Positions 212 to 21,714 of a stretch of DNA of 23,379 nt are shown here, piece after piece. Location: the IMG/VR virus record IMGVR_UViG_2802429220_000004; one strand, written 5' to 3'. Numbering within the stretch: the first letter of the stretch is position 1; each line of letters starts with the position of its first letter. The stretch comes from a virus (taxonomy: Duplodnaviria > Heunggongvirae > Uroviricota > Caudoviricetes). The notes under the pieces were generated by a model. It ran no database searches. It was not told where the DNA came from and saw nothing but the letters and a program-made list of their open reading frames with translations. The position numbers and the translations under genes are program-made.

Positions 212-1255
212 TTATTTTATACGAATAAACAGTGACTTCCCTGTCGACATCCCTACATATCCAAGGCAACGCCATGTCCCTGACAGAGTGACAGCCGAGT
301 TGTCGAAACTTACATCAGCATCATAAGAAGATGACGGGCGCAACTGGCTGGCTGCAACACTGTCGCCATAGTCTGCTGTGCCTTCGTACATGGCATAAAC
401 CAGAGAACCTATATCCCCCGCACTGACCTGTTGAGCACCTGGTCCAGGATCGCCTTTATCACCTTTCGGACCCTGCGCACCTGCCGGGCCTGCGGCTCCC
501 GTATCCCCTTTAGGTCCCTGTGGCCCTGCCGGGCCTGCGGCTCCCGTATCCCCTTTTGGTCCCGGTGGCCCCGCCGGGCCTGCAGCTCCCGTATCCCCTT
601 TCGGTCCCTGCGGTCCTGCCGGACCTGTGGCTCCTGTATCCCCTTTTGGTCCCTGCGGCCCCGCCGGGCCTGCAGCTCCTGTATCCCCCTTGTCGCCCTT
701 CGGTCCCTGTGGACCTCCCGGGTCGCCCTGCTCACCTTTCGGGCCGGTATCCCCCTTATCGCCCTTGTCTCCTTTATCCCCCTTTGGCCCCTGTGGGCCT
801 GTATCACCCTTGTCTCCCTTCTGTCCCTGCGGACCCGTTGCTCCGGTGTCGCCTTTCGGTCCCTGTGGTCCCACCGCCGTTTCCGCTTTCCTCGCCGCTT
901 CCTCTGCCCTGCTGACAGCCGCATCCGCCGCGTCTTCCAGTTTTTTCAGCGACTCAGGGTAATAAGTGCTGTCCTGCTCACGCAGCAAAAACGCATTCAG
1001 TGTGCCCGGCTCGTCGTCTGCCATGACGTCAATCTCGCCAGCGCATGCCGGCTGACGGCCTTCCACGCACAGGGTCACACGATAACGCCCCGGCTCAACC
1101 TGCATGGTGTAACTGCCTGTTTCCCCTGGCTGACACTCCGCCACCGTGGTGACTATCACCGTCTCACTCGTTCGCGTGGCTTTCAGCTCTATGGTGCAGT
1201 CCGGTACCGGTTTTCCTGTACCATCCTTCAGCACACCTGAAATCTGTACTGACAT
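212..1255 (-). CDS. stf: Side tail fiber protein (lambda Stf-like N-terminal domain) with a central collagen-like Gly-X-Y region
   Basis: N-terminus [17 protein letters not shown]...GTLNAFL parallels lambda Stf ([17 protein letters not shown]...GTLNDFL); about 140 aa of uninterrupted G-X-Y triplets ([16 protein letters not shown]...); ATG at 1255 preceded by a G-rich SD. Confidence 0.85.
446..877. repeat. Tandem 45-bp (and 9/18-bp sub-period) DNA repeats encoding the collagen-like Gly-X-Y region of the tail fiber
   Basis: Near-identical units such as ggtccctg(c/t)ggccc(c/t)gccgggcctgc(a/g)gctcc(c/t)gtatcccct recur head-to-tail; the repeat keeps several frames open on both strands. Confidence 0.85.
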
Positions 1256-14204: not shown

Positions 14205-15262
14205 TTTCCGCCTCCTGCATCCCGTCCACGTTTTGCAGCCAGGGTCCAGCCTGATGAATGAGCTTCTCCGGGTTTATCACCGGTCATACTGTTGCAGTGC
14301 CACAGCGAGCCCCCCCACGTCACCGTATCGCCGGGGTGGTAGGTTTCACCGGCTCTGAACACACCGCGGTAGAGCATCACCGGCAGGGAAAATGTTTTTT
14401 CCGTACACTGGCCACTGCTCTGCCGGATCACCACAGAGAACAACCGCTCATCCGTCATGCTGACGTCGATATCCGCCACCCCGTCAACCAGGCATTCCCA
14501 TCCCCGCATCCCGTGCGTTTTTTCATACGCCCGCCAGAGTCCACCCAGGTGTGTGGCATACGTGCCCCGGGGAAAGGATTTTTGATCGTCAATAGCGGGG
14601 AGCACTTCCAGTGCCGTGGCATCACGCCCGTCCTGCGGAGCCGGAAGGGCATTCACCGCCTCCAGAACCGCCTGCTTCAGTACTTCCGGATCGTAATCAC
14701 GACCATCACGCGGAGCAGGGATATGGCTTACGGCCTCTTTCACCATCTGCTCAAGCATCGGACGCACATCATCCGGGGTGAGACTTTTACCGTCCGCCGG
14801 CTGCGGAATATTTGCGACCGCATCATTCACCGCCTGCCTCAGTACTTCCGGATCGTAGTCACGACCATCACGCGGAACAGGAATATGGCTTACAGCCTCT
14901 TTCACCATCTGCTCAAGCATCGGACGCACATCATCGGGGGTGATACTTTTGCCGTCTGCCGGCACCGGTATTTTCGCGACCGCATCATTCACCGCCTGCT
15001 TCAGTACTTCCGGATCATAATCGCGACCATCACGCGGTAGCGGAATGGCCCCCACTGCGTCATCCACCATCGCCTGCAGAACAGGGCTAACCTCATCCAC
15101 CGTCACATGCTTCTGTAACAGAGCGGACAGGGAAGCCAGTTTCTCTTCAAACGCTTGTGCCTGCGCGCTCATCTTCTCCTCAAATGTGCGCTGTAAATCC
15201 GCCAGCACCGTGGCGAATTCTTCTCCCAGGGCACGAATAATGGACAGTTCACGTTCATTCAT
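14201..15262 (-). CDS. Repeat-containing head-module protein (possible decoration or fibre protein): coiled-coil N-terminus, about 2.7 tandem 54-aa repeats, C-terminal possible carbohydrate-binding domain
   Basis: Repeats IPxPRDGRDYDPEVLxQAVNDAVAxIPxPADGKSxTPDDVRPMLEQMVKEAVSH; C-terminal …YHPGDTVTWGGSLWHCNSMTGDKPGE…GWTLA resembles a CBM5/12-type motif; ATGA overlap with the portal stop. Confidence 0.6.
   Translation of the reverse strand: MNERELSIIRALGEEFATVLADLQRTFEEKMSAQAQAFEEKLASLSALLQKHVTVDEVSPVLQAMVDDAVGAIPLPRDGRDYDPEVLKQAVNDAVAKIPVPADGKSITPDDVRPMLEQMVKEAVSHIPVPRDGRDYDPEVLRQAVNDAVANIPQPADGKSLTPDDVRPMLEQMVKEAVSHIPAPRDGRDYDPEVLKQAVLEAVNALPAPQDGRDATALEVLPAIDDQKSFPRGTYATHLGGLWRAYEKTHGMRGWECLVDGVADIDVSMTDERLFSVVIRQSSGQCTEKTFSLPVMLYRGVFRAGETYHPGDTVTWGGSLWHCNSMTGDKPGEAHSSGWTLAAKRGRDAGGGK
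14650..15045. repeat. Tandem 162-bp DNA repeat (about 2.5 to 3 copies) inside the 353-aa gene
   Basis: For example atatggcttac(g/a)gcctctttcaccatctgctcaagcatcggacgcacatcatc starts at 14721 and again at 14883. Confidence 0.85.
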
Positions 15263-16623
15263 TTTTTCAGAATCCCCCTGAACATCGCTTTCACCGCATC
15301 ATGCTCTGTTTCACTGATTGCCTTATTACCGTCAGATGCGCCGTCAGGCGGTTGCGCTAAGGCCGTTTTCCCGGTCGACGCGAACGGATCCTCACGGGCA
15401 TCACGACGGGACAGTGCCTCCAGACTGTAGTTCTGCTGCTGAAGATACAGTGCATCACCGCCGGCCAGGGGCGGCAGGTTCTCCCGTTTACGGGCCTCAT
15501 TGGGCGTGAGAAGCGTATTTTTCACCGCATCCCCCAGCGTTTTCATGCGCCGCTCACTGTCCATTCTCAGCAGCGTGGTGACATCAAATTCTGTACTCTC
15601 GTTTTCCCCCGTTTCCAGCGCCTCATCCAGTAACAGTTCAATGGACTCAATCAGCGTCTGCAGGCACTGGGAATAATACTGCTGCTCCAGCGCCTCCACG
15701 TTGTCACTGGAAGGCGGTTGTCCCACGCCAATCTTGTAGGCCGGGACACGGAACACCGAACAGACAATTTCAGCGGTCATCTTCAGTTGTTCCACCGTCT
15801 GCGCATCCACCGGTGAAAACGTCGTGGGGTTATATTTTGCCCCGTTGCTCAGAATGGCCGTTTTCCCCGCATTTTCGCCGGTATACCCGCTGTCCCAGTT
15901 GCTCTTCAGTTTTTTCGCATTTTCTTCCGTAATACTGCCGGGGATCTCAATCACCCCGGACGGCATGCCGCCATTTCTGAAAAAATACGTCGAATTTTCC
16001 TGAATATGATGCCCCTGCGTGGCGGCCAGCCCGGCGGCATACACCGGCGGCAACCCTATAAGCGGATGAAAAAAACAGTTAAACCGGTCGTGGATCACTT
16101 CCCGGGCAGGCACCGTCACCGCCTCAGTGATCCCGCAGTTCCGGTCCGGCGTGATGCGGTAGAACACTTCGCCGTCATCCGCCACCAGTGGTTCAACCCG
16201 GCTCCAGTCCAGAATGCGCAGTTCTTTGATCTGCCCCCGGGAGTTACGGATTTTCAGCACCACCGTATTGCCGTGACGCAGTTTGGCGTTCAGCCACAGT
16301 TCAAAAAACTGGATGCGGTTCTGCTGGGCGTTGGGACGACGACAGAGGCGGGCAATATCCCCCCGGCGAGTTTCCCTGCGTATCCCCTGCGCATCCGTCT
16401 GCATAAGACGCAGCCGCATTTTGGCGATATCCTGGGATATCAGCGAAATGCACGAAAACACCGCATGAAAGGAGAGGACGGCTTCCGGATCGGCTTTCAC
16501 GCCCTGCTGCCAGGCGCCGGAAAAGGGCTCAGCCACCGCCTGAAACAGGCTGGTCCAGCCCGCCTCTCTTACGTCACGTCCTGATTTCTGGTTTTTTCGG
16601 GTTCGCTGTAAAAGGTTCCACAT
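15259..16623 (-). CDS. Portal protein, HK97 family
   Basis: Size (454 aa) and the …QLKMTAEIVCSVFRVPAYKIG… motif match the HK97-family portal signature as I recall it. Confidence 0.85.
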   Translation of the reverse strand: MWNLLQRTRKNQKSGRDVREAGWTSLFQAVAEPFSGAWQQGVKADPEAVLSFHAVFSCISLISQDIAKMRLRLMQTDAQGIRRETRRGDIARLCRRPNAQQNRIQFFELWLNAKLRHGNTVVLKIRNSRGQIKELRILDWSRVEPLVADDGEVFYRITPDRNCGITEAVTVPAREVIHDRFNCFFHPLIGLPPVYAAGLAATQGHHIQENSTYFFRNGGMPSGVIEIPGSITEENAKKLKSNWDSGYTGENAGKTAILSNGAKYNPTTFSPVDAQTVEQLKMTAEIVCSVFRVPAYKIGVGQPPSSDNVEALEQQYYSQCLQTLIESIELLLDEALETGENESTEFDVTTLLRMDSERRMKTLGDAVKNTLLTPNEARKRENLPPLAGGDALYLQQQNYSLEALSRRDAREDPFASTGKTALAQPPDGASDGNKAISETEHDAVKAMFRGILKK

Positions 16624-16834: not shown

Positions 16835-18772
16835 TCAGCCGCCGGACGCACTGCCGTAGTTCACACCGGTGATCACCGCCACCGCCGCGGTACGGCGACG
16901 ACGCCAGTTGATCCAGCGCTCCGCACGGATGGCCACACTGCCTGTCTGGAACATGGAAACCAGCTCCACCGGCGACGGCGTGGTACTGTCGCCGGTCGGC
17001 TCAGACTGCATTTCCAGTGATGCCTCGCGGGACATATCCACTGCCACGCCGCCGTCATCCGCCAGATAAATATCCGGGGCATTCACCAGCACCAGCTGGT
17101 CACCCACGTACTGGGAGACAATCACCGGCAGCCCCTGGAAGGTCCCCCCCAGCAGGGTCATGTCCGGGTATTCCTTCTGACCCAGCGCATTTTTACGCAT
17201 GGACAGCGCCAGGGCATTGGTGCTGGACATCAGCCAGACCGCACCGGTGGGCTGCAGGTTTGCTGCCACAAACTGTCCAAACGCCGCCTCTGCATCCGCA
17301 TCCGGGTTACCGGTTGATGCCTTGCCCTTCACATCATGGGTGATGGACGCCGGGGAGACATCTGCCACTGCGGCTTTTTTCGGGTCCACAAAGTCTGTGT
17401 CCAGACGCGCCACCACCGCTTCTGCCAGCGCATTACGGACCAGCGCATCAGCTGCCGGACTGGAAAAACGGATCAGCTCTTCCGTCAGTACCGCAATGGC
17501 CGACACCTTCGCATGACTGAAGGTGATGGATTCAAAATCAAACTTCGTCAGGGGTTTTGCCTTACCCTCACCCACCCAGCCGGCAGCACCGCCGGACACC
17601 TGGGCGTGCACACGGATATTGAACGGCACCTGACGAAGTGCAGGGATCCCGCCCTGACCAAATCGCCCGATAATGGTCTGCGGACGCAGGTAATCAATAA
17701 AGTCCTGTGCGTATTCCTGATATTCAGACAGGCTGCCTGCCCACTGCGGATCCGTGGTGGTCCCCGCGCCCACTGCCGATTTCAGGACATGATGCAGACG
17801 ACTGTCATCCGGATACTGACGACGGGCCACTTCCAGGGCTTCAGAGCGGACACCTTTAGCCGCAGCCAGTGATTTGGCAAAGCGGGCGAAGCCAATCCCC
17901 TTATCCAGTTTCTGCTCCACACGGATCACCGGCGCTGAAGCCACCGCGGCCACATTCCCGTTACCGGCCTGTTTCACCGGCTGCGCCGTGGCGGCCTTAC
18001 CGGCTTCCAGTTCACGCAGGCGCTTCAGGTGCGCATCCACCTGACGGATTTCCGCTGCGGTGTTGTCGTAATGCTCTTCCTCCTCCACATCCAGCGTGCG
18101 CCCTTCCTCTGCGGCTTTGGTCATGACCTCCTCAAGGGAGGCTGCCAGCGCTGCACGCTTGTTTTCAAAACTTTTAATCTGTTCGCCAATATTCATTATG
18201 GTCTTTTCCTTATGAAAAACGGTTGTTGACTGTGCCGCAGCGCCGGCAGAAGATGCGATTTTCACCACCGGTTTCCGGTTGCCGGACGCGGCAGAAAACT
18301 GGCGGTCGTAAGATTTAATGGTCCGGATGGTGCATTCCGCATTCGCGGGCACGGTGACGGCAGACACCTCCATCAGTTCCCAGCGCAGAAAATGCAGTCC
18401 GCCTCCGTCCAGAAAGGTGTATTCATGGGGACGGAAGCCCACGGACAGTCCCCTGACCAGCCCGGTCTTAATGGCCGCCCAGGCCTCATCCAGTCGGGCT
18501 GCCAGTTGCGATGGCATATCCGGCACAGGCTTCGCCAGTGTTGCCGTGATTTCCAGCCCTTCGCTGACCCGGCGCACCGTACACTGCCCCACCGGGCGGG
18601 AATGGTCATGCTGCCAGAGAAACGGGATCGCACTGCCGAACTCCGCCCCCTCCGGCTCCAGGATGTCACCATCCCGATCCGGAGAAGGCGTTGACGCAAT
18701 CCCGGTGATCACCCGCTCATCCTCACTGAAGGATTTCACCGTCAGCAGGGAGCAGGCCCGTTTAAGATTCAC
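16835..18772 (-). CDS. Prohead protease (HK97/S78-like) fused in frame to scaffold-like segment and HK97-fold major capsid protein
   Basis: N-terminal …FLWQHDHSRP…ELMEVSAVTVPANAE… protease motifs; middle coiled-coil segment; long C-terminal capsid-like domain; GTG start with AGGAGG five nt upstream; internal in-frame ATG at 18196. Confidence 0.85.
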   Translation of the reverse strand: MNLKRACSLLTVKSFSEDERVITGIASTPSPDRDGDILEPEGAEFGSAIPFLWQHDHSRPVGQCTVRRVSEGLEITATLAKPVPDMPSQLAARLDEAWAAIKTGLVRGLSVGFRPHEYTFLDGGGLHFLRWELMEVSAVTVPANAECTIRTIKSYDRQFSAASGNRKPVVKIASSAGAAAQSTTVFHKEKTIMNIGEQIKSFENKRAALAASLEEVMTKAAEEGRTLDVEEEEHYDNTAAEIRQVDAHLKRLRELEAGKAATAQPVKQAGNGNVAAVASAPVIRVEQKLDKGIGFARFAKSLAAAKGVRSEALEVARRQYPDDSRLHHVLKSAVGAGTTTDPQWAGSLSEYQEYAQDFIDYLRPQTIIGRFGQGGIPALRQVPFNIRVHAQVSGGAAGWVGEGKAKPLTKFDFESITFSHAKVSAIAVLTEELIRFSSPAADALVRNALAEAVVARLDTDFVDPKKAAVADVSPASITHDVKGKASTGNPDADAEAAFGQFVAANLQPTGAVWLMSSTNALALSMRKNALGQKEYPDMTLLGGTFQGLPVIVSQYVGDQLVLVNAPDIYLADDGGVAVDMSREASLEMQSEPTGDSTTPSPVELVSMFQTGSVAIRAERWINWRRRRTAAVAVITGVNYGSASGG

Positions 18773-18835: not shown

Positions 18836-20497
18836 TTATATGAAAAAAACCGCATATTCTTTCTTTTTGGGCTCCGGATTCAGGGACATCAGGGATACCG
18901 CATTGAAAAGCGCCATCAGCGGGTCGATTTTCCCCCGTCCGCTGGCCTGTTTGGTAATAAGGATGGCGTTACCTCTGGGCTCCACCCGGGCATTGCCAAC
19001 GCACCAGGCCATCAGTGGCTGGCCACCATGCACCAGCACCCCTTCAGCCAGTTTGCGTTCGGTGGTTTTGATGGCCCCGCCCAGCTTCCAGCCCTGGCTT
19101 ATCCCCACAACAATTCCGTCGGGGATCCCGGCTTCCGCCAGTGAATCCAGAATCTGCCCCACACCTGACGGGTCAATACCGATATGATCCAGTAACTCAG
19201 CCTCATGAATACGACGCACATACTCCGCCACTTCCGCCGTGTCATCCCCGACCCGACGGACAATCGTCATGTCTCCACAGGCCACAAAATCCTGAAACCG
19301 GGATGCCTCACTCTTCCGTCGGACCACCGCGGTTTCATGCGCCCAGGCATGGCCCCAGCCTAACCATTCGCGGGTCTCCCGATCACGACCAATCACGTAC
19401 ATTCCCAGCAGATCATCCAGGCCCCCGCCGTCAATCCCCACCGTCACCACATCAGCGCGCTGCAGGATATCTTCCAGGCTGACGCGCCTGCCCTGCTGCT
19501 CCCAGAAATCCGCGCCCGCCCAGCGGTCAGAACGCAGGGCAAGGCCAATTTCCACATTGGCGTGTTTTGACATGAAGCCACGAAATGCTTCCTCACCAGC
19601 CTCCCGGGCTTTACGGTACTCCCGGTACAGAAAGGCCTCATCCACCGAATAGCCGAGATTCGGATTGACCATGGCGAGGTTTTCCATCAGCAAGTGAGCC
19701 CCGCTTTCCACCATTTCAGGAGGGTGTTCAAATATCACCGGCAGAAAGTGCGGATCATGAATTTTGCCGTCGCGCACATCCCGGGCGTACTGCAGTTTCT
19801 GTCTGAACACCCCGGCGGGCGGTTCATTCGACTGGGTGGTCGTATACACCACAAACCCTTCCGGGCGGGAGGCAAGGCCGCCTATGGCTTCACGTAACAT
19901 GTCCTCCGCCTTGCACTGCTTGCCAAACAGCCACAACTCATCAATCAGCGTACCCACGGACTTGATACCGGACACCGTATTCGGATCGGCTGCCACCACC
20001 TTCAGGGTGGTGTCTGTCACCCTGTGGGTGATGGTCCGGATATGGGTCTGTACCTGGCAGAGGTCATCCAGATCATCGTCCCGTCGTACCATATCCCTGG
20101 CAGGATTGAAGGCGTTGGCTGCCACCTCCACAGTCGGGGCCAGAATCGTGTAACCCGCCGCCTGCCGCCAGTTCAGTAACAGCGCCGTCATCATGATCCC
20201 GGCGGCCAGTGTGGACTTGCTGTTTTTTTTGGGTATCAGAATGAACACTTCCTTGATATGGCGGACACCGGTCTGCGCATCGTAGGAGCCAAACAGAGCC
20301 GCCACCAGGTCAAACACCCACTGTGCACAGGACTCACCGAACGTCGGGCTGCCCGGTGCATCCACAATCCGCAGTTGTTTAAAAATCGCCAGGGCATGTG
20401 CGGCCTGCTCCGGGTAAATCGGAGACGGAATAATCGACAGCCCCTTTTTCAGGCGCTCTGCCCAGTCCGGGCAGGCCGTGCTCCACACAGGTATCAT
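18836..20497 (-). CDS. terL: Terminase large subunit
   Basis: 553 aa; Walker-A-like …LIPKKNSKST…; acidic nuclease-domain residues; directly downstream of and overlapping the small subunit gene. Confidence 0.9.
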   Translation of the reverse strand: MIPVWSTACPDWAERLKKGLSIIPSPIYPEQAAHALAIFKQLRIVDAPGSPTFGESCAQWVFDLVAALFGSYDAQTGVRHIKEVFILIPKKNSKSTLAAGIMMTALLLNWRQAAGYTILAPTVEVAANAFNPARDMVRRDDDLDDLCQVQTHIRTITHRVTDTTLKVVAADPNTVSGIKSVGTLIDELWLFGKQCKAEDMLREAIGGLASRPEGFVVYTTTQSNEPPAGVFRQKLQYARDVRDGKIHDPHFLPVIFEHPPEMVESGAHLLMENLAMVNPNLGYSVDEAFLYREYRKAREAGEEAFRGFMSKHANVEIGLALRSDRWAGADFWEQQGRRVSLEDILQRADVVTVGIDGGGLDDLLGMYVIGRDRETREWLGWGHAWAHETAVVRRKSEASRFQDFVACGDMTIVRRVGDDTAEVAEYVRRIHEAELLDHIGIDPSGVGQILDSLAEAGIPDGIVVGISQGWKLGGAIKTTERKLAEGVLVHGGQPLMAWCVGNARVEPRGNAILITKQASGRGKIDPLMALFNAVSLMSLNPEPKKKEYAVFFI

Positions 20498-21057
20498 CCG
20501 TTGCCCTCATTATCATTATTCACCACCAGTCGGGGTGGTGGTGGCACCGCAAAACGGTTAGCCGCTTTTTTCGCCGCGTCACCTTTTGCCGATTTTTTAC
20601 CAGCATCGCCTTTTTTATAGTGTGTGAACTGCGCCAGTCGCCAGGCCGCATCCAGTGCCAGTTTCGGGTCAATTATCAGGTTTTCCACCAGGATCCTCCC
20701 CATTGCTTTTACCGGATCTGGAAGACCGTCTTCCATGTAATCAATACTAGGAGATATCACCACGGGCGGTGGCATCTCCGGATTTGTTTCGTCCTGCTGT
20801 GGTATTGCAGCCGCCTCACGGCGACGGGGTTTATCCTCCTGCTCTGATTTTTTCTGCCGGTAAACAGGAACCTCATCCACCTCCACCGTCTCGCCCTGTT
20901 TACGGGCTATAAACGCAAGCACCTCCGGATCTTTTGCCAGCTGCGAGCCTTTAACTCTGGCCGTCTTCGCCGAATAACCTGCCGCAATGGCTGACGCTGT
21001 TTTGTTTTTCCCGGACATGAGCGCCAGCGCAAATTTTCGTTTTTGCGTCGTCAGCAC
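20494..21057 (-). CDS. terS: Terminase small subunit
   Basis: Lys-rich N-terminus (possible helix-turn-helix), Pro/Lys-rich tail; GTG start at 21057 preceded by GGGAGGG (alternative ATG at 21018); 4-nt overlap with terL. Confidence 0.75.
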   Translation of the reverse strand: MLTTQKRKFALALMSGKNKTASAIAAGYSAKTARVKGSQLAKDPEVLAFIARKQGETVEVDEVPVYRQKKSEQEDKPRRREAAAIPQQDETNPEMPPPVVISPSIDYMEDGLPDPVKAMGRILVENLIIDPKLALDAAWRLAQFTHYKKGDAGKKSAKGDAAKKAANRFAVPPPPRLVVNNDNEGNG

Positions 21058-21348
21058 AGTGCCCTCCCGGGGTCAAAACTCTCTCAGCCGGGCATGCATC
21101 AGGCCGTTTTCCCACACCGCGCATACCCCGAATGTTAACTGCTGCCTGGTTAACATTTTCCGAAAAAGTCGGTTAACATTTTTTCCACGCAATAAACTGA
21201 ATTATAAAGATAAAAACAGAAAAAAGGCCGAACAGCCAGTTAACATGTTAACTGGCCTGAAACGGGAATTTTTTCTCTGCATGAGAGGGGGCGCGGTGTC
21301 CGGAGCGATCGTTTTTTTCGCCGGATGATCCCCCCCCCCCGGGGCGGG
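21058..21348. promoter_or_regulatory. Non-coding cos-like region between HNH and terS: GTTAAC-core repeats, 20-bp perfect palindrome, AT-rich core, C11 tract
   Basis: GTTAAC cores at 21134, 21149, 21172, 21239, 21247; palindrome CCAGTTAACATGTTAACTGG at 21236-21255; AT-rich stretch 21186-21235; C11 at 21330-21340. Confidence 0.5.
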
Positions 21349-21714
21349 TCACAGTCCGATGATATCGTCTGCCCTGCCATGACCTCCGGACACCTCCGGC
21401 AGCGTCGGGTCCGGCATACCACCCGCCGCTTCACGAGCAGACTTTTGTCGATGGCATTCGGTACAGAGCGTCCAGAGATTCGTCTCCTCATTACCACCAC
21501 CGAACTGAAGTGCAATTCGGTGATCGAGTTCACTGTCACAGAGGTCAACCACACGACCACAGAGACAGCACTGTCCGGCATCCCTCAGCCAGATATGACG
21601 CTTGAGGGAAACACGTGCACTGCCACTGACACGACGCTGTTCCCCCTTCAGAATATTCACCCGTCGGGTGTTCAGAGTTTTGATTCTGCTCTGGAGTGTA
21701 CGAAGCTCAGCCAT
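21349..21714 (-). CDS. HNH endonuclease (terminase-associated)
   Basis: …CCLCGRVVDLCDSELDHRIALQFGGGNEETNLWTLCTECHRQK… carries the HNH/zinc-finger signature; position directly upstream of the terminase genes. Confidence 0.85.
   Translation of the reverse strand: MAELRTLQSRIKTLNTRRVNILKGEQRRVSGSARVSLKRHIWLRDAGQCCLCGRVVDLCDSELDHRIALQFGGGNEETNLWTLCTECHRQKSAREAAGGMPDPTLPEVSGGHGRADDIIGL

Follow-up and report, generated by a model that had tools for sequence, protein, structure and literature searches.

A probable HK97/D3-type cos site with a conserved octamer array as putative recognition sites for an SF6-type TerS

The DNA considered here is a 23,379-bp stretch from a Caudoviricetes virus (IMG/VR record IMGVR_UViG_2802429220_000004; henceforth the window, whose positions serve as coordinates throughout), and our subject is the 291-bp spacer at 21348–21058 between the gene for an HNH endonuclease and terS, the gene for the small terminase subunit (TerS), which is followed by terL, for the large subunit (TerL); by Pfam assignment the order is HNH, spacer, terS, terL, all on the minus strand. 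We find that this spacer is probably the cohesive-end (cos) site of a lambdoid prophage, at which a machine of the HK97/D3 type (TerL with the HNH nuclease) would cut and an SF6-type helix-turn-helix (HTH) TerS would act on a cosB-like array of five octamers. The TerL/HNH side of the site is constant among relatives while the TerS side co-varies with TerS, which is the signature one would expect of a cosB-like TerS recognition array. In kind the element is an ordinary cos site; the mapped overhang of a relative has already been published, and it is the repeat array that appears undescribed. Below, the minus strand is taken as coding, and numbering starts (+1) at 21285, the first base after the predicted cut.

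The cut can be placed by way of the Shiga toxin 1 (Stx1) phage Lys8385Vzw, which PhageTerm assigned to the cos class, with 3' cohesive ends whose 10-nucleotide (nt) overhang, CGCCCCCCCT, closes the genome record (PMC7946995). The right end of that record (MT225100) reads ...GGGGGGGATCATCCGGCGAAAAAAACGATCGCTCCGGACACCGCCCCCCCT, closing in GGACACCGCCCCCCCT, and the left end opens with CTCACGCAGAGAAAAAATTCCCGTTTCAGGGCAGTTAACATGTTAACTGG, the restart being CTCACGCAGAGAAAAAATTCCCGTTTCAGGGCAGTTAACATGTTAAC. Because these mapped ends align to the window base for base and without a gap, we assign its overhang to 21295–21286, with cuts predicted by homology between 21286 and 21285 on the coding strand and between 21295 and 21296 on the other. 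We infer that the DNA is cut between a homopolymer of guanines and a palindrome, 30 bp upstream of the latter (Table 1). An initial annotation of the window had called the spacer a candidate cos region, and the ends mapped in this close relative do fall within it. Lys8385Vzw shares with the window the HNH-spacer-terS-terL module, five copies of the octamer ATGTTAAC, the palindrome and the cut-site core; it differs in its overhang (CGCCCCCCCT as against CGCGCCCCCT), in having G7 where the window has G11, and by a 1-bp deletion that the window carries after the palindrome. The paper describing it reported only the overhang, not the repeat array (PMC7946995), and when the literature was searched for the overhang and palindrome strings, nothing relevant emerged beyond that paper.

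Independent support for this placement comes from the linear record of Pseudomonas phage D3, which begins with terS, finishes with the HNH gene and reads ...GGGGTGGGGCGGG-N24-GGACACCGCGCCCCCA at its right end; the first 15 of the 16 nt of GGACACCGCGCCCCCA are identical to window 21301–21287, and the core GGACACCGCGCCCCC is common to the window and the D3 end. D3 further resembles the window in a G-rich tract ending 40 nt upstream and in a homologous TerL (21% identity by BLASTP, E = 3e-12), and it differs in its left end and its TerS, both unrelated to those of the window, and in having no GTTAAC repeats. Its overhang was reportedly found by Kropinski, in 2000, to be 9 nt. The right ends of the HK97 and phiE125 records read ...G9-ATCA...GACCGCCGCCAAA and ...GGGGAGGGGGG...GGGACCGCCCGCTTC, respectively, and HK97 gp2 matches the window TerL at 23% identity over 457 columns (BLASTP, E = 2e-11). 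Given the Lys8385Vzw ends, the core at the D3 end, the HK97 and phiE125 ends and the homology of TerL, we take the element to be a cos site of the HK97/D3 type with a 3' overhang. Beyond the close relatives, CTCAYGCASAGAAAAAAT of the left-end core is kept in distant clades as well. Two other parallels were discarded: the record of Burkholderia phage vB_E184, which starts just before terS, has a holin gene as its last gene, so its ends are uninformative, and the cos sites of Serratia gold-mine phages are unrelated.

Upstream of the cut, the guanine run begins 8 nt after the stop codon of the HNH gene. In 58 distinct relatives it is 6–11 nt long with its last G 43–46 nt from the cut, and a G-rich tract stops 40–42 nt short of the right record end in HK97, D3 and phiE125. 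The initial annotation had likened this homopolymer to cosQ, which these distances make plausible, and we regard it as a candidate upstream cos element, either cosQ-like (acting in termination) or a positioning site for TerL/HNH. We found no description of a G-tract at HK97-type cos sites in the searchable literature, HK97 papers included, and a tract 40–46 nt upstream of the cut may be an undescribed universal element of 3'-cos sites of the HNH type, for which the in vitro system already available for HK97 offers a test. A GAC(A)CCGC core near the genome end follows the G-rich tract in HK97, D3, phiE125 and all clades of the window family.

Downstream of the cut lie the repeats. GTTAAC occurs 8 times in the window, where shuffled sequences would have 3.1 copies (0 of 100 shuffles reach 8), and five of these fall at 21134–21139, 21149–21154, 21172–21177, 21239–21244 and 21247–21252. 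The initial annotation had noted five cores within about 120 bp, and this holds: they span 119 bp, and all lie within a longer octamer, ATGTTAAC, at 21132–21139 (+), 21149–21156 (−), 21172–21179 (−), 21239–21246 (−) and 21245–21252 (+). For the octamer 0.40 copies are expected in the whole window, and none of 100 shuffles reaches five. All five octamers lie between the cut and terS, at about +32 to +154. Two overlap to form the palindrome; the 20-mer recognized earlier, at 21236–21255, is real, and its perfection extends by a base pair at either end to 22 bp (21235–21256). The remaining three, a direct copy (R1) and an inverted pair (R2 and R3), occupy +107 to +154, and the AT-rich stretch that had been said to separate the two groups is likewise present (31% GC over 21183–21234, against 57% in the window). 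The 52-mer from 21173 (21% GC) is the joint lowest-GC 52-mer of the window, and we propose that the AT-rich spacer supplies a flexible or bent link joining the proximal TerS sites to the distal ones. In some lineages the repeat unit exceeds 8 bp: in locus L146 (299–436) the right arm of the palindrome and R1 both read ATGTTAACCACCTTTT, and in the family consensus both read ATGTTAACTGGCT. A sixth GTTAAC lies between R2 and R3 in L146 (299–436) and in L153 (993–1126).

Among 56 distinct relatives, none of the 38 octamer columns varies, whereas of the 253 other spacer columns 185 are invariant (73%; Fisher p = 1.8e-5, a figure computed on columns and sequences that are not independent), and the palindrome is invariant in 21 of its 22 columns. 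The leader preceding terS is less conserved (49 of 72 columns over 21058–21129). The invariance of the octamers against the 73% found elsewhere in the spacer argues that the repeats are functional. The module is widespread: the spacer and its flanks are 84–91% identical to those of the Shiga toxin (Stx) phages BP-4795, 2851, 1717 and YYZ-2008, which belong to the same cos family as Lys8385Vzw, and to many Stx1a/Stx2 prophage records, and the module (20950–21420) was found in 1253 of 5426 complete Escherichia coli genomes, with a per-genome median of 2 places and a maximum of 8, always with an annotated terminase small subunit adjoining an HNH endonuclease. One IMG/VR contig is 100% identical over the region, and a prophage 97.7–100% identical is carried by strain STEC2018-607 and by IMG genome 2778261064.

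A strong indication of what the octamers do is that they change together with TerS. The N-terminal 55 residues of the window TerS are modeled by AlphaFold2 as a confident four-helix HTH domain (predicted local distance difference test score, pLDDT, >90 for residues 1–50; helices 4–14, 19–25, 33–41 and 44–55, of which 33–41 is the predicted recognition helix), whose best Foldseek match is the DNA-binding domain of SF6 TerS (4zc3; target template-modeling score 0.85, root mean square deviation 1.6 A, probability 1.00), with the full-length TerS of an SPP1-like phage and the PaP3/NV1 TerS also among the top matches. The remainder of the protein, including any central ring-forming oligomerization core, is less certain: the Pfam match spans only profile positions 1–58 of 141, and residues 60–187 were modeled with low confidence (pLDDT 43–85; predicted template-modeling score 0.32).

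Where TerS carries ...KTAR(V/I)KGS in its HTH, five octamers were found in 55 distinct loci, five of ATGTTAAC in 54 of them and four plus one ATGTTAAT in L153; where it carries ...KSARCKGS, four distinct loci have no ATGTTAAC and five ATGTTTAY. The helix region reads AIEAGYSxKSARCKG in TerS of the ATGTTTAY clade and AIAAGYSAKTARVKG in that of the window, and the substituted residues 32 and 35 (T32S/V35C) fall where the predicted recognition helix begins. In the loci of TerS P0024, P0006 and P0025 the architecture is that of the window and every site is ATGTTTAY. The palindrome of the SARCKG clade is ATAAACATGTTTAY, R1 is ATGTTTAT and R2/R3 are ATGTTTAC-N9-GTAAACAT, so that both arms of the pair are changed symmetrically, and the sites keep their order and nearly their spacing (66/24/17, where the window has 67/23/17). 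Another KSARCKGS locus, the fifth (L118, TerS P0030), has ATGTTTAC-N9-GTAAACAT within the 92 bp of upstream sequence available. The motif types of P0006, P0009 and P0025 were predicted from the HTH sequence before the DNA was retrieved, and all three predictions were correct; P0006 is 86% identical overall to the window TerS, yet has the other HTH. We infer binding from this covariation, and the octamers are most likely TerS recognition sites; that the repeats are candidates for such sites had been proposed in the initial annotation, and the comparison lends this strong support. Viral contigs searched for the exact pattern ATGTTTAC-N9-GTAAACAT gave 27 loci, which we regard as chance matches because none has a TerS relative or a cos core.

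A more compact form of the site was found when genome contigs were scanned with an alignment of TerS sequences (a scan with the single TerS gave no match). This compact clade comprises prophages of Kluyvera, Atlantibacter, Erwinia, Serratia, Enterobacter, Citrobacter, Pantoea and others, together with Salmonella phage FSL SP-016, and its TerS are 38–47% identical to that of the window. The G-tract, the spacing and the core (GGACACCGCGCCCCCT/CTCACGCACAGAAAAAAT) are as in the window, and after the core there are only a ribosome-binding site and a single GTAAACATGTTAAC at +34 to +47, which contains the ATG of terS. Codon 2 of terS is the rare leucine codon TTA in 18 of 18 cases, as compared to 1 of 122 other leucine codons of these genes, and codon 3 is ACA in all 18; because these two are fixed while codons 4, 5 and 7–11 vary synonymously, the octamer appears to be constrained beyond its coding role. 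DNA homology between the compact clade and the window stops exactly after ATGTTAAC, at the terS ATG of the compact clade, which suggests that in the window clade the motif stayed in place relative to the cut and was elaborated into a perfect palindrome. The terS start of the window clade, now GTGCTGAC with a ribosome-binding site, lies ∼190 bp further on. Upstream of the cut, 12 of the 16 distinct compact loci tabulated have GTAAACAT at about −34 to −27. In the compact relatives (L003, 2580–2600; L088–L104, just upstream of terS), TerS bound to GTAAACATGTTAAC could also control its own translation.

The same cut site recurs in islands of another kind. That at L111 (3446–11944, E. coli GCA_012987925.1) encodes an integrase, an AAA_25 primase/helicase, TerS P0067 and a capsid-like protein and has no terL; L112 (6206–8281), of a related type, has HNH, TerS P0054 and capsid genes. 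TerS P0067 appears in 244 of the collection's blocks. In the islands both the G-tract and the core of the cut site are preserved, a 44–46% identical TerS has GWQL in the helix, and the repeats are AAGTTACA, beginning at about +27 (two upstream of terS and three inside it in L111; five upstream and one inside in L112). They look like phage satellites that borrow the TerL/HNH cut site of a helper and supply a private TerS. As a group, these islands (L107, L108, L109 and L110 as well as L111 and L112) are small and carry an integrase, a primase of AAA_25 or D5 type and a capsid-like gene, with neither terL nor portal.

From these comparisons one could envision the following course of events. The concatemer would be cut within the GC-rich core GGACAC/CGCGCCCCCT/CTCA, yielding the 10-nt 3' overhang at 21295–21286. 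TerS oligomers would bind the palindrome and R1–R3 through their N-terminal HTH domains, with the AT-rich tract allowing the DNA to bend between the proximal and distal sites, and the bound TerS would both anchor TerL/HNH at the adjacent cut site and label the DNA as self. TerL, with HNH, would then cut 30 bp upstream of the palindrome and packaging would run toward terS, the G-tract 44 nt upstream presumably belonging to the cut-site side. We tentatively extend this to the idea that the octamer array is a swappable packaging barcode, in which T32S, V35C and perhaps A25E retarget TerS from GTTAAC to GTTTAY while the cut site stays universal, although we hold it to be somewhat doubtful. If it were true, co-resident prophages, of which an E. 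coli genome may hold the module at up to 8 places, and satellites would each package only their own DNA. The module is carried by many Shiga toxin phages, and knowledge of the cut position and of the self mark is needed to predict which prophages or satellites are co-mobilized, to orient genome records and to design cos-plasmid transduction tools. TARVKG with GTTAAC and SARCKG with GTTTAY constitute testable specificity pairs in a TerS family whose DNA recognition is poorly understood.

Several observations weigh against this account. The ends derive from a single PhageTerm analysis of a relative whose spacer matches the family consensus, the latter being ∼86% identical to the window spacer, and the G11 of the window is at the long extreme of the 6–11 range. 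The correlation between HTH and motif represents two or three independent lineage splits, not dozens, and T32S and V35C are linked to the further substitutions A25E and A30E. In the compact clade a third helix variant, SARSKG, goes with a palindrome of mixed GTAAAC/GTTAAC type, so the residue-to-base code is not simple; the TTA of that clade at codon 2 could in part reflect selection for an unstructured translation start. Finally, the TerS of HK97 has an unrelated fold and its mechanism is therefore not transferable, and a single site within the TerS ring was rejected as a template because the TerS families are unrelated.

Alternatively, the repeats could be operators, either for a separate repressor or activator of the packaging genes or for autoregulation by TerS with no role in packaging, or the palindrome could act as an RNA hairpin. 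Inverted repeats are typical of operators, the motif overlaps the terS start codon in the compact relatives, and the palindrome as RNA would form a stable hairpin (−16.9 kcal/mol, z = −3.9). However, the coding strand of the spacer is devoid of promoter-like sites and no terminator-like site was found (the sole promoter-like site is on the plus strand and made from the motif itself), and an Rfam search of it returned no family, only sub-threshold noise. The first site is fixed relative to the cut (+30 to +34 in all clades), whereas its distance to terS ranges from 0 to ∼190 bp, and the satellite-like islands pair their own repeats and their own TerS with a common cut site, which is the logic of packaging. 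We thus consider regulation as the sole role improbable, and autoregulation could in any case coexist with packaging recognition.

A second possibility, raised in the initial annotation, is that the palindrome is the nicking site, analogous to cosN and flanked by a cosQ formed by the homopolymer and a cosB formed by the three repeats. A perfect 22-bp palindrome would suit a symmetric nuclease, and it does sit between the homopolymer and the repeats, but the mapped ends of Lys8385Vzw lie 30 bp upstream, in the GC-rich, non-palindromic sequence matching 21295–21286, and leave the palindrome intact at +30 of the left end (+30 to +51 in the window). Moreover, D3 ends in the same GC-rich core, the palindrome varies in sequence with the TerS clade whereas sequences on the TerL/HNH side are constant, and the terL-less islands have the GC-rich core without this palindrome. 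A nick in the palindrome is therefore highly unlikely. From the G-tract onward come the cut site, then the palindrome, the AT-rich stretch, the three repeats and terS; since the cut lies upstream, the palindrome belongs with the repeats, and we propose that it is the cos-proximal TerS site of a cosB-like array.

It might also be argued that the repeats are functionless leftovers of duplications of the terS start region, as the octamer constitutes the first terS codons in the compact relatives (ATG TTA AC, Met-Leu-Thr), the present start GTGCTGAC could be a decayed copy, and the window clade has ∼190 bp of extra DNA. Neutral remnants would hardly have remained fully invariant in five copies while 27% of the neighboring columns vary, nor would all five have changed in concert to ATGTTTAY in another clade or the upstream copy have become a perfect palindrome while losing its ribosome-binding site, so we give this explanation very little credence. 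Least credible of all is that the spacer encodes a small protein, since the 113-amino acid (aa) plus-strand open reading frame (ORF) at 20987–21328 in the window's ORF list is intact in only 2 of 56 relatives, and the hydrophobic 24-codon ORF MLTGCPGIFAVFIFIIQFVVRKKC, which in 52 of 56 relatives starts at the ATG of the palindrome and stops at the TAA in R1, is cut to 14 codons by a frameshift in the window (21246–21202, minus strand), differs in others, has no ribosome-binding site, and owes its hydrophobicity to T-rich DNA, of which it is probably a by-product.

The proposed cos site combines features of several known systems. The cos site of lambda consists of cosQ, cosN and cosB (R3-I1-R2-R1), and its TerS, gpNu1, binds through an N-terminal HTH-type domain. 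The window resembles it in the sequence of an upstream element, a cut site, a TerS-repeat array split by bendable DNA and then terS directly, but the lambda-like architecture proposed in the initial annotation does not extend to the machinery, which is HK97/D3-like, with a 3' overhang, a non-palindromic cut site and an HNH accessory nuclease, whereas in lambda the overhang is 5' and 12 nt long, cosN is symmetric, TerL is of the lambda type, HNH is lacking and I1 is a site for integration host factor (IHF). The IHF element implied by such a layout did not materialize: no match to the consensus WATCAANNNNTTR with up to one mismatch was found on either strand of 21058–21348. The AT-rich tracts may instead give the DNA an intrinsic bend. 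SPP1 and SF6 share with the window the fold of the TerS DNA-binding domain (4zc3, 2cmp, 3zqq) and its Pfam family, and their G1P recognizes several short boxes on bent DNA on either side of the cut; they differ in headful pac packaging with permuted ends and in the absence of an HNH partner, while the window family has defined cohesive ends. HK97 (TerS gp1, TerL gp2, HNH gp74) has a 10-nt 3' overhang, and its TerS binds at +15 to +29 downstream of the cut (PMC11331095). It shares with the window the HNH-cos-terS-terL order, a homologous TerL, a G9-ATCA tract situated 42 nt from the right end, and a core reading GACCGCC, but its TerS is of an unrelated family with no similarity to the Terminase_2 HTH TerS of the window and reads one 15-bp site inside and at the exit of the ring, as compared to five short sites over 120 bp; terS begins 49 bp after the cut in HK97 and 229 bp after it in the window. 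We found no description of the repeat array, of its co-variation with TerS or of the conserved G-tract in the searchable literature.

Table 1. Features of the predicted cos site and adjoining genes (window positions unless another record is named)
Feature	Position	Strand	Basis or remark
HNH endonuclease gene, HK97-type accessory nuclease	21349..21714	-	Pfam HNH PF01844, 29.7 bits vs cut-off 21.4
G11 tract (C11 on + strand)	21330..21340	-	last G at -45, 44 nt ahead of predicted cut
Right-end core GGACACCGCGCCCCCT, stops at predicted coding-strand cut	21286..21301	-	kept in every clade, satellite-like islands among them
Predicted 10-nt 3' cohesive end, CGCGCCCCCT on coding strand	21286..21295	-	alignment to Lys8385Vzw ends
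Left-end core CTCATGCAGAGAAAAAATTCCCGTTTCAG, +1 to +29, with A6 tract	21257..21285	-	27/29 columns invariant in family
Palindrome GCCAGTTAACATGTTAACTGGC, perfect over 22 bp	21235..21256	.	two overlapping, opposite-facing ATGTTAAC; +30 to +51, packaged side
AT-rich spacer with T6, T5 and A6 tracts	21183..21234	.	31% GC vs 57% in window; 39/52 columns invariant
R1, ATGTTAAC in coding orientation	21172..21179	-	67 bp past right arm of palindrome
R2, ATGTTAAC	21149..21156	-	23 bp past R1; left arm of inverted pair ATGTTAAC-N9-GTTAACAT
R3, ATGTTAAC on + strand, GTTAACAT on coding strand	21132..21139	+	right arm of inverted pair
Leader, R3 to terS	21058..21131	-	ribosome-binding site GGGAGGG at 21068-21062
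terS, 187 aa, GTG start	20494..21057	-	Pfam Terminase_2, 36.9 bits vs 26.1, residues 2-59
terL, HK97/D3-class large terminase	18836..20497	-	Pfam TerL_ATPase and TerL_nuclease
Protease-capsid fusion gene	16835..18772	-	645 aa, Peptidase_S78 and Phage_capsid in a single gene, between terL and portal
Portal gene	15259..16623	-	
G-rich tracts in other phages	HK97 (L087) 788-796; D3 (L149) 385-397; phiE125 (L150) 421-431		

The surrounding genes are listed in Table 1. The HNH endonuclease annotation is also found on the counterparts of this gene in relatives, and an Rz gene and an antirepressor-like gene lie upstream of it. A fused protease-capsid arrangement has been reported for Gifsy-2-like heads (PMC12315714).

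Because several near-identical cos sites and TerS variants coexist per cell, the question of cross-packaging arises. In the PPompW prophages (L115, 1046–2504, PPompW_132418, LC567822.1) an IS110-family insertion sequence, ISEc20, lies inside the cos G-tract (GGGGGGG, the insertion, then GGGGGATCATCC) at a point equivalent to about window 21334, and the lysis genes and the HNH gene are absent upstream; with the cos site split and these genes gone, the PPompW prophages are probably packaging-defective.

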